This document shows, piece by piece, positions 46,024-48,810 of a DNA stretch of 64,000 bases. Both the position numbers and the translations under genes were made by a program. Origin of the DNA: Patescibacteria group bacterium UBA926 (GTDB taxonomy: Bacteria; Patescibacteriota; Doudnabacteria; UBA920); contig DBDS01000004.1 of the NCBI GenBank assembly GCA_002293685.1, positions 34,479 through 98,478 of the forward strand, read 5' to 3'. The notes below the pieces were generated by a model, which saw only the letters and a list, made by a program, of their open reading frames with translations, was not told where the DNA came from and did not search any database. The stretch's first letter is position 1. Each line of letters starts with the position of its first letter.

Positions 46024-46111
46024 TGGCGGAGAGGGAGGGATTCGAACCCTCGGTGCCTTGCGACACAGTGGTTTTCAAGACCACCGCACTAGACCACTAT
46101 GCGACCTCTCC
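46024..46111 (-). tRNA. tRNA-Ser (anticodon UGA)
   Basis: The minus strand reads GGAGAGGTCGCATAGTGGTCTAGTGCGGTGGTCTTGAAAACCACTG-long variable arm-GAGGGTTCGAATCCCTCCCTCTCCGCCA. The anticodon loop is CTTGAAA. Confidence 0.85.
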
Positions 46112-46550
46112 ACGTCGTACTTGTCTCCGAGCTTTCGGTACAGGCTAAAGCCTGTCCCTTACGCTCTCCATCAAGTACTCCTCTCACATTCACGCTTAAC
46201 CTCGCTATCGCTCGGCCCAAGTGTGAATGTGGTAAACTCACTTTCTTGGTCGCGGATACGGCAAGCCGTCCCGCTCCTTGTTCGCACTGGCGAAGCCAGA
46301 CGCTCACATGCTAAAGAATATTGTTGCCCTACGGGCATCTAAGATAAATCTAAATTGTGGATACTGTAAGTAGGACCTCCCTAACTACACTGTCTAAATG
46401 ACTCTACTATTATAACATTTTACCAAACTAAATCAAAAACGAGCCGTACTCTAGAATTGGCTCGTTTTTTGTTGGGTTTCGATTTCTGGTAGTACTATCA
46501 TTTCTGGATGGACGCCCACTTGGACTCAACTGGGCGTAGACCAAAAAGGA

Positions 46551-47708
46551 TTATTGAGGATATTGGCTTTCGGCTGGTTCAACTATGAAACCAGTAGTAG
46601 CTTGGCTTGGTTTTTGAACTGATGTATCTTCAGGTTCTGGGGTTACTGGTTCGGTTGGGGTGGTTGGTTGAGCTGGTGTTGTAGTTGTGGAAGTGGTAGC
46701 TCCTTGAACGCTCGCAGTTGTAGGTGCGATTGGGGTAGGCAATACCGCCAATGGGTCAAGTACAATTATCTTTTTCGCAATAAGGGAATTGTTTTCACGA
46801 GTTCCGATTACAGCAATTTTTCCGTTTAGACTATCCAGCTCGGTGATAGGCTCACCGTCCTGACTCATCATAATGGTCTCAGGATTGATTATAAAGGCAT
46901 TTTTTTCTACAGTGACTGTGGTTCTACTGCGATTACTAATAATTCCTGTGACAGAAATTTTGTTTGGAAGATCGAGCAAACTTTGTTCATTTACCGCGGC
47001 AATAAGTCTGGCTAAGTTCTTGTCAGTTTCTTTGATTGTGTCGAGAGCTTTAGCAAGTTTTTCACCATCTGGTAATTTCGCAGCACTCTCTATAACAGTT
47101 TTCTTTTCTTTATTTAAAGCAACTAAGTTATTTAATAAACTGGAATCATTTTGTGAAGCTTTCGTTGCAGCTAACTGAGAAGTTACTTCAAAAGTTTTTT
47201 CAGTTTGCTTTGCGAGAGCATCCAAAGCGATTGCTTCCTGGTCCGGGTTACTTAGTGCGATAACTAACTTAGTTTCCGAGAGTCGCTTCTTTGCTAATTC
47301 TAAGTGAATTTCTGCCTTCTTTTCGTTATCTAAAGCAAGTTTTAAGCGAAGTTGTTCCTTAGAGATTTTCACTCCGTATAGACGATCGCCAGGAAGGCTG
47401 TCTTCGGAAGCTTGAATTGTTCCGTACCCACCAACTAATAACATCGCTAGTGCCAAAGGGATAGTTGCAAGTTTGTAAGTTTGAAAAGTATTAACCAGCT
47501 TTTGCCAAACTCCGACTTTCTGAGCATATGCGTGACGCATGGTAGGGGAAGGAGCTTTACTAACCGGGATTGAGTTTAAAGTTTGTGCCAACTTTAACAT
47601 CTCCACCAATTCTTCAGATTGGAAGTGCTGAGCGATTGATTCAATACTTTCGCCTTGATTTAGTCTGGCAAGAGCTTGATCTAAGATGTCGTCTGAACTT
47701 AATTTCAT
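46551..47708 (-). CDS. putative anti-sigma factor (membrane-anchored)
   Basis: Its start lies 4 nt after the ECF sigma stop. One TM helix is followed by an extracytoplasmic Thr/Pro-rich tail. Confidence 0.5.
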   Translation of the reverse strand: MKLSSDDILDQALARLNQGESIESIAQHFQSEELVEMLKLAQTLNSIPVSKAPSPTMRHAYAQKVGVWQKLVNTFQTYKLATIPLALAMLLVGGYGTIQASEDSLPGDRLYGVKISKEQLRLKLALDNEKKAEIHLELAKKRLSETKLVIALSNPDQEAIALDALAKQTEKTFEVTSQLAATKASQNDSSLLNNLVALNKEKKTVIESAAKLPDGEKLAKALDTIKETDKNLARLIAAVNEQSLLDLPNKISVTGIISNRSRTTVTVEKNAFIINPETIMMSQDGEPITELDSLNGKIAVIGTRENNSLIAKKIIVLDPLAVLPTPIAPTTASVQGATTSTTTTPAQPTTPTEPVTPEPEDTSVQKPSQATTGFIVEPAESQYPQ

Positions 47709-47712
47709 TGAT

Positions 47713-48297
47713 TTATAATTTTCTGATGTTGTTGTCGAACAGTTCTTTAAGTTTACTGATAGCACGGTGTTGGATAACTCTGATCGCGCCTTCGGTCTTG
47801 TTTAAGATTTGAGCAATAGTTGAGTTGTCGAGTTCTTCGAGGAACTTCATTTTGATTACCGTTTGCTGTTCATCATTTAACTCTTTGAGAAGTTTAATTA
47901 AGATACTTTGTTCAATTTGTAGATTTATGATTTCTACAACATTAGTTTCGTATTCAAGGGTATTCTCTATTGCATCCAACGGAACCAATTGCTTTTTTTT
48001 GCGGTAATAATCAATTACTAGGTTTCTGGCTATTTGGAATAACCAACCTTCGAAAGCTTCAATCTTTTCTAAGTTTTTTAAACTATTGAAAGCTTTTATG
48101 AAAGTGTCTTCCGTGATGTCTTCAGCGGTTTCTCTATGAGAAACACGATAGTAAACAAAGCGATAAACTCTCATAAAGTAAGCCTCGTAAATATCCGAAA
48201 GAGCTTCTTGCTTACCAGCCTGGGCTTGTGTGATGAGTCTTGTGAGACTGCCAGCTGGCAAATCCGTCATATTACTGATGTTGGTTTGAGAGTTCAT
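47713..48297 (-). CDS. ECF-type RNA polymerase sigma-70 family factor
   Basis: Region 2 (YRFVYYRVSHRETAEDITEDTFIKAF) and region 4 HTH (LNDEQQTVIKMKFLEELDNSTIAQIL). Confidence 0.85.
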   Translation of the reverse strand: MNSQTNISNMTDLPAGSLTRLITQAQAGKQEALSDIYEAYFMRVYRFVYYRVSHRETAEDITEDTFIKAFNSLKNLEKIEAFEGWLFQIARNLVIDYYRKKKQLVPLDAIENTLEYETNVVEIINLQIEQSILIKLLKELNDEQQTVIKMKFLEELDNSTIAQILNKTEGAIRVIQHRAISKLKELFDNNIRKL

Positions 48298-48505
48298 GAT
48301 TATAGACGTGGGTTTAGTTGTTTTGTTACAGAAGGTCCTGAAACACTGCTGATTATGTATATTTTATCACAAAGCAGTAGTATTTAGGCAAAATAAAAAC
48401 CCTTTTGGGATTGTTTTAGATTTCTGGATTTAAAGCGAAGGATTCTTTGAATCCCTCTACAAAACCGAAAGAGGTTTTTCATCCACAAAGTGAATAAAAA
48501 ACCTC

Positions 48506-48598
48506 TGGCGGAGAGGGAGGGATTCGAACCCTCGGTACGGCTTTAAACCGTACAGCGGTTTAGCAAACCGCCGCACTAGGCCACTATGCGACCTCTCC
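48506..48598 (-). tRNA. tRNA-Ser (anticodon GCU)
   Basis: The minus strand reads GGAGAGGTCGCATAGTGGCCTAGTGCGGCGGTTTGCTAAACCGC-long variable arm-GAGGGTTCGAATCCCTCCCTCTCCGCCA. Confidence 0.85.
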
Positions 48599-48810
48599 TC
48601 GTCGCAACAACCTCCATCCGTTCAAATTTGGCTAAAGCCAAATTTTCACTAGTTCCGGTGTTGCTCCTCTCACATTCACGCTTAACCTCACTACGCTCGG
48701 CCCAAGTGTGAATGTGTCAAATTATTAATACAGTCGCGGATGCTGCAAGCGGCCCCGCAGATATGTATCAATAACTCACTCATTTTACTGCAAAAGTGGT
48801 CATTGGTCAA

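Follow-up and report, generated by a model that had tools for sequence, protein, structure and literature searches.

The stretch analysed here, called the window below, comprises 64,000 nucleotides (nt) of the Patescibacteria group bacterium UBA926 (assembly GCA_002293685.1, contig DBDS01000004.1) and contains two serine tRNA genes, both on the minus strand, each of which is directly preceded by a copy of a conserved structured RNA element of about 120 nt. Both genes belong to the tRNA family RF00005, with serine anticodons assigned by ARAGORN and Rfam scores above the threshold of 29 bits, and their 5' halves are identical. Apart from these two genes, Rfam matches nothing in the 64 kb but a transfer-messenger RNA (tmRNA) gene (9475-9860, minus strand; RF00023, 112 bits). 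An element copy is composed of a hairpin, designated P2, a linker, a second hairpin, designated P3, and a short tail. The tRNA genes and the element copies are located as follows, R1 and R2 being the two covariance models introduced below.

46024-46111, minus strand: tRNA-Ser(UGA) with encoded CCA (ARAGORN anticodon tga; RF00005, 60.2 bits), cargo of element copy 1
46112-46233, minus strand: element copy 1, 122 nt (R1 121.1 bits, E=2.9e-28; R2 105.6 bits; fold; sequence)
about 46185-46231, minus strand: P2 hairpin of copy 1
46178-46184, minus strand: linker AGAGGAG of copy 1
about 46117-46178, minus strand: P3 hairpin of copy 1, tip GGCUUUAGCC
46112-46116, minus strand: tail GACGU of copy 1, abutting position +1 of tRNA-Ser(UGA)
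48506-48598, minus strand: tRNA-Ser(GCU) with encoded CCA (ARAGORN anticodon gct; RF00005, 56.3 bits), cargo of element copy 2
48599-48718, minus strand: element copy 2, 120 nt (R1 109.6 bits; R2 93.8 bits; fold)
about 48671-48716, minus strand: P2 hairpin of copy 2
48665-48670, minus strand: linker AGAGGA of copy 2
about 48604-48664, minus strand: P3 hairpin of copy 2
48599-48603, minus strand: tail GACGA of copy 2, abutting position +1 of tRNA-Ser(GCU)

The original prediction had described conserved blocks upstream of both genes, and pairwise alignment of the two leaders (46112-46290 and 48599-48760) showed these blocks to be real. They follow each other in the order of a small hairpin (P1), a near-identical block of 50 nt, a divergent long hairpin and the sequence CGACGN, which directly precedes tRNA position +1 in both cases. 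The P1 block, GCGGGRC..GCTTGC..ATCCGCGAC, is located at 46252-46274 and 48736-48758, the 50-nt block, ACATTCACACTTGGGCCGAGCG(A)TAGYGAGGTTAAGCGTGAATGTGAGAGGAG, holds in both leaders a stem of 9 base pairs formed by CACATTCAC and GTGAATGTG, and the variable hairpin carries the tip GGCTTTAGCC in both leaders. Identity between the copies is uneven, with 51 of 55 positions identical in P2 plus linker and 28 of 62 in P3, where eight base pairs are altered on both sides with pairing kept; the flanks of the two leaders are unrelated to each other. Both leaders fold as three hairpins followed by the cloverleaf, with z-scores of -4.8 and -4.1 against dinucleotide shuffles, none of 200 of which folded as well. 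The chance expectation of the core pattern in the window is zero, and a search with R2 with filters off found exactly two copies in the 64 kb (next match E = 0.12).

Homologues of the element are present in other genomes. A scan with the exact pattern, in which each species was represented by one genome, revealed nine places in seven metagenome-assembled genomes (MAGs), which are situated before other tRNA genes (Ala, Thr, Cys, Met, Ser) or at contig ends, one of them being followed by a terminator. The nine genomic homologues gave a consensus fold (MAFFT/RNAalifold) with compensatory changes at 26 of 37 pairs. On this nine-sequence consensus the covariance model R1 was built, R2 being the second model of the family, and R1 detected on the same loci additional, more divergent copies before tRNA genes for Ile, Leu, Val and Trp. 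A relaxed pattern applied to JGI metagenomes yielded 76 loci; since this pattern fixes the core and the linker, their conservation in the metagenome set is partly due to construction, but both are also kept in copies found by the model alone. Altogether the model matched 100 sequences in Patescibacteria genomes and metagenomes, 83 of which are distinct; the survey is one of loci and contigs, not of whole genomes. In the 83 copies, 95.0% of the pair cells hold standard pairs compared with 30-43% when the partners are slid by 1-3 columns, double-sided changes occur at 35 of the 37 pairs, and none of 500 shuffles reached any of the covariation measures. The 83 copies were aligned by fit to the model, a procedure biased towards the structure, but the fold is secure in view of how large the effect is and of the independent result with MAFFT/RNAalifold.

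The view that the blocks represent a structured RNA leader rather than a simple duplication is thus borne out by overwhelming covariation among the homologues, by the compensated pairs of P3 and by the unrelated flanks. The opposite case, that near-identical flanks would extend beyond the blocks, or that no other tRNA would carry the leader and covariation would be missing, is contradicted by the same flanks and pairs and by about 50 copies abutting tRNA genes. The Rfam search that had been proposed assigned the leader to no family and leaves it unclassified: with Rfam 15 (4227 models), no match overlapped either window leader even at E<=10, a search of one homologous locus (L017) gave only weak generic hairpin matches of the miRNA-precursor type (best E=0.059), and in 28 homologous loci the leader itself matched nothing at gathering thresholds, the only matches being tRNA, tmRNA and rRNA. 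In the literature searched, which did not extend to subscription-only papers, we found no description of a conserved leader upstream of Patescibacteria tRNAs, and the bacterial RNA motif surveys accessible in full do not cover this group. The two window leaders can therefore be regarded as members of a candidate new structured RNA class in Patescibacteria, at present without an Rfam entry, which can now be annotated by means of R2 and the 83 distinct sequences. The element region is miscalled as spurious open reading frames (ORFs) in the window and in some assemblies. An example is a 142-aa ORF (45914-46342, plus strand) which runs antisense across tRNA-Ser(UGA) and its leader and is annotated as a gene in public assemblies (L002, L005); it is almost certainly spurious. 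A leader peptide was rejected by inspection, as the tiny ORFs after the linker differ in frame and spacing between the two window copies.

Two observations concern the origin of the sequences. Three MAGs with the element (records L016-L018 and L020) are titled 'uncultured Gammaproteobacteria bacterium'; these titles look unreliable, because the leader of L018 is almost identical to that of a Parcubacteria MAG (L019). A viral origin was considered and discarded, as the sole IMG/VR pattern match (L022) is a chance match in a phage repeat region and is not listed by the model.

P2 is a hairpin of about 20 base pairs with an outer stem of 9 base pairs, which co-varies freely, and an invariant inner core, in which C-U-U-G-G-(G)-C-Y is paired with R-G-U-U-A-A-G with two conserved G.U pairs and a bulged G. 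The G.U pairs (columns 16/78 and 17/77) are retained in 78-80 of 81 sequences and make the fold strand-specific, in the sense of the downstream gene. The tip of P2 ranges from absent (L028, L027 and the L065 copy starting at 1034) to about 17 nt (longest in L015 at 5571). The linker is purine, with the consensus RARAGGAR, P3 varies from a short hairpin (L065, 1034-1126) to about 75 nt with purine-rich internal loops, and the tail has the consensus (Y/R)GACGA. The GAGGA of the linker and the GACGA of the tail can be written as the pairs G.A, A.G, G-C, G.A and A.G, of which the central G-C is predicted by the model (GC in 71 of 77 sequences) and the G.A pairs are suggested by inspection. With such a pairing, the downstream RNA would begin right at the foot of the fold. 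Position -1 is variable (A, C or U).

The 3' end of the element coincides with the start of the gene downstream. About 50 of the 83 copies end 0-6 nt, mostly 0 nt, before a tRNA, and 17 amino-acid specificities are represented, two copies abut a tmRNA (L066 at 0 nt, L083 at 3 nt), and in nine the end lies between -1 and +1 nt relative to a start codon. L045, with an element of the same sequence as that of L025, provides a tenth junction with an ORF. Eight copies reach a contig end. The specificity for tRNA-Ser isoacceptors that had been suggested from the window is not upheld in view of this range of tRNAs and of tmRNA and protein-coding cargo. The ORF cargos identified by Pfam are the ribosomal proteins L27, S14, L20 and S4, SSB and Fpg. 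In the arrangement rplE-element-rpsN, the upstream stop codon lies 8 nt before the element, in that of an L35-like gene, element and rplT 5 nt before it; both spacers are wholly filled by the element, and no ordinary Shine-Dalgarno sequence is found at the normal distance. Linker and tail differ between the two sorts of cargo, AGAGGA being present in 9 of 9 ORF-linked copies and 29 of 51 copies at tRNAs, and GGACGA in 5 of 9 and 1 of 51, respectively, a difference which may reflect adaptation to the cargo. A no-Pfam family of 105-116 aa encoded after the element in L064, L080 and L045 was considered as a partner protein and rejected, as four unbiased contexts of its homologues contain no element.

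Some of the genomic arrangements point to considerable age. L014 (ComF 47% identical), L082 and L076 (28%) share with the window the order of a ComF-like gene, element and tRNA-Ser(GCU), and a cluster of Leu, Val and Ala tRNA genes carries elements in L017, L095, L052 and L088. Copies on one contig are only 58-70% identical to each other, and the combination of shared loci and divergent copies argues for long retention under selection for structure. Signs of turnover are present as well. The genome of L008 has Ser loci without the element and a copy on another contig (L021, same assembly), and L014 contains an array of copies in the spacer between ComF and tRNA-Ser. A 341-nt piece composed of about 220 nt of upstream sequence and the element is 95% identical between L025 (123-463) and L045 (722-1062), and this identity stops exactly at the 3' end of the element, which is followed by fpg in L025 and by the 105-116-aa no-Pfam gene in L045. 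As positions 1-179 of L045 match the fpg part of L025, the original order was likely module-fpg-module-gene, with a duplication ending at the element's 3' end. With both kinds of signal present, the element behaves like a portable unit, and its functional border is the one at the 3' side. For comparison with MITE and REP elements the loci alone were considered; in these, conservation is internal rather than terminal, and no motif at the 5' edge was seen by eye.

Signals that could govern transcription of the two window leaders were sought by a consensus scan, so that the following sites are consensus matches only.

46409-46436, minus strand: promoter-like TTGATT-16-TGnTATAAT, 10 of 12 matches plus TG extension
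48782-48810, minus strand: promoter-like TTGACC-17-TAAAAT, 10 of 12 matches
48470-48506, minus strand: terminator-like hairpin and T-run directly after tRNA-Ser(GCU)

The first site comes after a hairpin and T-run that end the DUF5667 gene described below and would imply a leader of about 290 nt before tRNA-Ser(UGA); TGnTATAAT is found at the equivalent place in relatives by alignment. The second is situated just past the stop codon of the ComF-like gene and would imply a leader of about 175 nt. The terminator-like site suggests that tRNA-Ser(GCU) is its own transcription unit, and together with the promoter-like sites before both leaders it fits separate units for the two genes. The TTGACA noted in the original prediction just 5' of the conserved block of copy 2 is indeed present (48715-48720), but it overlaps the start of P2 and no promoter-like site reported by the scan uses it as first hexamer, a better site being the one at 48810-48782. 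In the family as a whole, no fixed promoter was found ahead of the element: there was no phased -10 peak, only a rise in A+T, and a peak at -12 was the UACAAU start of the element itself.

Any reading has to account for an invariant helical core, for a 3' end in contact with the first nucleotide of a tRNA, a tmRNA or a start codon, for a cargo that is freely chosen though biased to genes of the translation apparatus, and for dispensability at each single gene. We favour, tentatively, the reading that the element is a portable, co-transcribed, cis-acting 5' leader or 'punctuation' module which is separated from its cargo at the 3' boundary. In the window, each tRNA-Ser gene would form a transcription unit of promoter, long 5' leader and tRNA. 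RNase P is established as the enzyme that makes the 5' cut in tRNA and tmRNA precursors. At these cargos the cut at the junction would be the normal RNase P cut, which would set free mature tRNA-Ser as well as an RNA of about 120-290 nt whose 3' end is defined. For ORFs, two options may be envisaged: folding of P3 could place the Shine-Dalgarno-like linker beside the AUG, or cleavage could leave a leaderless mRNA. The spacing of 0-1 nt is tighter than a Shine-Dalgarno mechanism needs and fits well with the leaderless option. The invariant core of P2 would most likely be the recognition site of one common putative trans factor, either a protein or the ribosome, which would give transcripts of the translation apparatus a shared processing, stability or expression level.

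Several known systems offer parallels to such a module. Ordinary pre-tRNA 5' leaders, the substrates of RNase P, likewise lie directly 5' of position +1 of a tRNA or tmRNA, and the window copies, too, must be removed for mature tRNA-Ser to form; such leaders are, however, short and not conserved, whereas the element is a fold of 120-130 nt kept across Patescibacteria lineages and also occurs before start codons. In the phage T4 genes 38 and 25, split Shine-Dalgarno sites are closed by a hairpin. Similarly, AGAGGAG, about 70 nt upstream of the start codon in ORF-linked copies, is their only good Shine-Dalgarno-like sequence, and once P3 is folded, no more than about 6 nt would separate it from the AUG; unlike in T4, a large, conserved hairpin intervenes, and the linker is just as well conserved before untranslated RNAs. 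T-box leaders share with the element that a structured leader is tied to tRNA biology, but they precede genes for aminoacyl-tRNA synthetases or amino-acid metabolism and possess Stem I, a specifier, the T-box sequence and a terminator, none of which the element has. A T-box was therefore rejected: there was no match, the downstream gene is a tRNA, and no terminator lies between element and cargo.

A number of observations weigh against the favoured reading. Not all copies possess an intact junction with a gene: a few are first members of tandem pairs and have decayed tails, four are inverted against tRNA 3' ends, and one (L013) is followed by a terminator only. These three kinds of copy can be reconciled with a free small RNA or with a repeat element as well. 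Among neighbouring tRNA genes that were not the reason for fetching a locus, 12 of 42 carry the element, which is thus common but not general; as RNase P needs no such leader either, the element is dispensable for tRNA maturation. Likewise, its absence from the four unbiased homologue contexts mentioned above means that it is not an obligatory regulator of particular genes. P2-P3 is absent, by alignment and by model, from both Ser loci of three relatives with the gene order of the window (L007, L008, L011). Finally, a helix extending up to position -1 would, if stable, hinder bacterial RNase P.

The inverted copies are of lower score (L026, 1275-1401, minus strand; L052, 6439-6556, minus strand; L065, 375-505, plus strand; L082, 12101-12231, minus strand), and a gap of 2-7 nt separates their tails from the CCA terminus of a tRNA on the opposite strand. 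In L082, L065 and L052, one or more tRNAs are enclosed between a direct and an inverted copy, which are only about 60% identical to each other. Such copies could specify an antisense transcript, form a 3' structure in the tRNA transcript or be relics. At another locus (L050, 2827-2948, minus strand), a good copy is followed by no tRNA, recognisable RNA family or ORF (GCAGGCGAGGAGGGACUUGACUGG...). The tRNA after the element of L059 (823-1213) seems to be interrupted, with its 5' half at the tail and the Rfam 3' part about 330 nt further on; this interruption, apparently an intron, is consistent with group I introns reported in Patescibacteria tRNA genes (PMC13011429). The tmRNA gene of the window lacks an upstream element, unlike those of the metagenome loci L066 and L083.

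Of the alternatives, the one that fares best, while still unlikely, regards the element itself as the product, i.e. as a stable small RNA of about 125 nt which serves as a protein scaffold or decoy and rides on strongly expressed genes. Its 3' end would stem from the RNase P cut of the following tRNA or tmRNA, its 5' end from 3' processing of a preceding tRNA or from a promoter. This would agree with the fact that about 80% of the scorable copies abut RNase P substrates at 0-6 nt and that some are situated between two tRNAs, 4-30 nt past the first (L020, L055, L095). The separate terminator in L013 and the copy found elsewhere in the L008 genome (L021) point in the same direction, inverted copies would precede an antisense, cloverleaf-like RNA, and all cargo genes are of highly expressed kinds. 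A free RNA leaves unexplained, however, why start codons lie 0-1 nt past the tail in 9 of 9 ORF cases and why ORF-linked tails differ; P3 differs widely among the copies of one genome, and no complementarity was found to anything tested. As regards a guide or antisense function towards the element's own cargo, there was no excess of duplex energy (-0.47 +/- 0.54 kcal/mol relative to the cargo of other copies). A scaffold for guide RNA of the omega RNA type (TnpB/IscB), in which the adjoining flank would serve as the guide, gave no Rfam match, and no nuclease or transposase is found among the neighbours examined with Pfam, most metagenome loci being unannotated.

According to a second alternative, which we consider decidedly improbable, the element is a self-cleaving ribozyme or the target of a dedicated endonuclease and is cut at its own 3' end regardless of the downstream sequence, so that tRNA, tmRNA and leaderless mRNAs would be released with exact 5' ends. 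A single rule would then account for junctions at tRNA +1, at tmRNA +1 and at an AUG 0-1 nt away; the linker and the tail provide conserved nucleotides at the junction, the P2 helix with its tandem G.U pairs and bulge could dock, and the element fills whole intercistronic spacers that have no ordinary ribosome-binding site at normal spacing. On the other hand, the permissive search with Rfam 15 (cmscan, E<=10) revealed no likeness to any ribozyme family, including the known self-cleaving classes (hammerhead, twister, twister-sister, pistol, hatchet, HDV-like, hairpin, glmS, VS), such an activity would be redundant with RNase P at tRNAs, and position -1 is variable. To our knowledge, no natural ribozyme class cuts at its own 3' end without a downstream requirement. 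Self-cleavage would leave a 5'-OH, an end with which leaderless translation works poorly in E. coli and which is unusual in tRNA.

Related to this is the broader idea of a new class of RNA 'punctuation', in which a 3'-cutting ribozyme or a substrate of a dedicated Patescibacteria endonuclease releases tRNAs, tmRNA and leaderless ribosomal protein mRNAs; we regard this as unlikely though far from negligible. With the same reservation, it might correspond, in bacteria, to the tRNA punctuation of mitochondria, with a non-tRNA fold as the signal. In mitochondrial tRNA punctuation, in MALAT1/mascRNA and in the dicistrons of tRNA and C/D small RNA of Nanoarchaeum and plants, the signal is a tRNA or tRNA-like fold. 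Common to these systems and the element is a structured RNA separated from its neighbour at the border of a folded unit, with leaderless mRNAs or small-RNA ends as a result; in the case of the element, however, the fold is an upstream non-tRNA one (no match to RF00005 or to a tRNA-like structure), the cargo varies, and cleavage at ORF junctions is our conjecture. Should cleavage take place at the 3' junction, this would represent a new processing principle in bacteria, possibly with a new ribozyme or RNase specificity, and synthetic biology would gain a ready insulator part; should the P2 core be bound by a protein, a new regulon would be defined. Patescibacteria, also termed candidate phyla radiation, make up a large share of bacterial diversity and have tiny genomes with few known regulators, most of them being uncultured. 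A 120-nt fold repeated before tRNAs and within ribosomal protein operons is likely to show how their translation machinery is processed or coordinated.

A third alternative, for which the chances appear smaller still, is a selfish or neutral structured intergenic repeat, i.e. a Patescibacteria counterpart of REP/BIME, ERIC, BOX/RUP or Correia elements, tolerated where RNase P removes it. The element shares with these a hairpin unit of 100-150 nt that is intergenic, multi-copy, present within operons and patchy, even among close relatives; tandem, inverted and truncated copies, the arrays in the ComF/tRNA-Ser spacer of L014 and the duplication of the 341-nt module before neighbouring genes are of the same character. 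Insertion would, however, not give exact 3' junctions to gene starts. Unlike such repeats, the element shows strand-specific covariation of the RNA type with freely co-varying stems around an invariant internal core in place of conserved termini, terminal inverted repeats and a conserved short target motif at the 5' edge were not seen (5' flanks judged by eye), the copies within a genome are old and divergent instead of near-identical, and orthologous loci have been retained deeply, across ComF identities of 28-47%.

A feedback operator of a ribosomal protein such as S8, mimicking rRNA and common to ribosomal protein operons and tRNA genes, is very improbable. Like the S8/spc, L20 and S4 operators, the element is a structured RNA directly 5' of cistrons (S14, L20, S4, L27) and contains a helix with conserved non-Watson-Crick features that resembles a protein site. 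The GUUAAG of P2, with its two G.U pairs to CUUGG, recalls the S8 site in helix 21 of 16S rRNA; GUUAAG together with two G.U pairs also occurs in E. coli h21, where it is paired to CUGGC (rrsH sequence). Furthermore, one copy is situated between rplE and rpsN, just upstream of the place of rpsH in the spc operon, and ribosomal proteins make up four of the nine ORF cargos. In the S8 site, the helix is interrupted by seven conserved nucleotides that form an asymmetric internal loop; the bulged A642 is invariant, and there are base triples A595-(A596-U644) and (G597-C643)-U641 (PMC4176348). These hallmarks are absent from the element: the nucleotide ahead of CUUGG is variable and in most cases paired with the one opposite (columns 12 and 82), and one strand of P2 is two nt longer, so that the likeness of GUUAAG/CUGG is superficial and the element was rejected as an S8 site. 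Moreover, one and the same element serves ribosomal protein genes, SSB, Fpg, tRNAs and tmRNA, is lacking at the orthologous genes of many relatives, and its exact tRNA junctions would be left without a reason. The model is also not significant on the E. coli rRNA operon. This last result bears on another similarity, as GGUUAAG of the P2 core (window 46194-46220 and 48681-48706) is identical to the 5'-terminal 7 nt of E. coli 23S rRNA in helix 1 (L099, 2260-2266), and its P2 partner CUUGG(G)CC is a wobble version of the 23S 3' end CUUAACC. A 23S helix 1 or rRNA fragment was nevertheless rejected, with R1 giving E>=0.22 on the complete E. coli rrn operon with filters off and the polarity being reversed relative to the processing stalk; the likeness is possibly a coincidence.

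Recent segmental duplication of, or gene conversion between, the two tRNA-Ser loci would account for the identical tRNA 5' halves and the near-identical P2, but can be dismissed, as P3, which separates P2 from the tRNA, has an identity of only 45% with eight compensated pairs and could not be skipped by a conversion tract, the flanks are unrelated, and 83 distinct homologues are found at other genes and in other genomes.

Between the two tRNA-Ser loci lies a pair of protein-coding genes, and upstream of the element copies a separate hairpin unit is found.

47713-48297, minus strand: ECF (extracytoplasmic function) sigma factor (ORF; precomputed Pfam Sigma70_r2/r4_2 on identical genes), context outside the element
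46551-47708 (called gene), minus strand: DUF5667 anti-sigma-like protein (ORF; precomputed Pfam DUF5667 on identical genes), context
46234-46345, minus strand: lineage-specific upstream unit of three small hairpins, including P1 at 46252-46274 (two alignments)
48736-48758, minus strand: P1 hairpin of copy 2 (GCGGGGCCGCTTGCAGCATCCGC, then GAC) (alignments; fold)

The succession of Sigma70_r2 and r4_2 and then DUF5667, found by Pfam in genes identical to those of the window, identifies the pair as an ECF sigma/DUF5667 system. An identical sigma protein is encoded on an 851-kb Patescibacteria MAG contig (GCA_022842405.1) and on other contigs, and homologues are labelled Doudnabacteria or Patescibacteria by their sources. 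The order ClpC, ComF-like, tRNA-Ser(GCU), sigma, DUF5667, tRNA-Ser(UGA) and, further on, RecG is kept in L007, L008/L009 and L011, whose sigma proteins are 85%, 78% and 63% identical to that of the window. Hence the pair did not enter recently as an insertion between two tRNAs, and the proposed tRNA-associated sigma/anti-sigma insertion, or tRNA-flanked genomic island, has to be abandoned. The tRNAs concerned lack P2-P3 in these relatives.

The relatives also show that the shared blocks do not constitute one unit: P2-P3 is the element, whereas P1 is a separate lineage-specific hairpin unit, present in relatives without P2-P3. Before tRNA-Ser(GCU), L007 and L008 contain only a unit of about 100 nt ending in the P1 hairpin and CGACCAAnAUAU, and the region 46234-46345 of the window is homologous to this entire short leader by alignment; the tRNA-Ser(UGA) loci of the relatives possess a plain promoter and a short leader. 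In L008 (2905-3116; also in L009), the three-hairpin unit ending in P1-CGACCAAGAC is present as a tandem duplicate before tRNA-Ser(GCU). In the window, P1 at 46252-46274 is flanked by GGAG..CGAC, an arrangement resembling linker, P3 and tail, and a natural element copy with a minimal P3 exists (L065, 1034-1126), so that the similarity is suggestive of the P1 unit being a decayed element copy; neither the unit at 46234-46345 nor that of L008 was detected by R1 or R2.

The surroundings of the two tRNA genes vary in some of the contigs with an identical sigma gene. In L006 (2497-2792), two further, different tRNA-Ser genes (GCU, and UGA without CCA) are fused to the 5' end of a tRNA-Ser(GCU) of the window type; this fusion stands in the place of the leader, with a thiamine pyrophosphokinase gene upstream, and is due either to a genuine rearrangement at the tRNA or to chimeric assembly with the joint in tRNA sequence. 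In the window, tRNA-Ser(UGA) is closely followed by a gene for a small GIY-YIG nuclease (45679-45954, minus strand), which is present in most contigs with an identical sigma gene. In GCA_022842405.1 (L001, 5309-5797), its place is taken by a 162-aa gene without Pfam match, a case of strain-level variation beside the 3' end of a tRNA.

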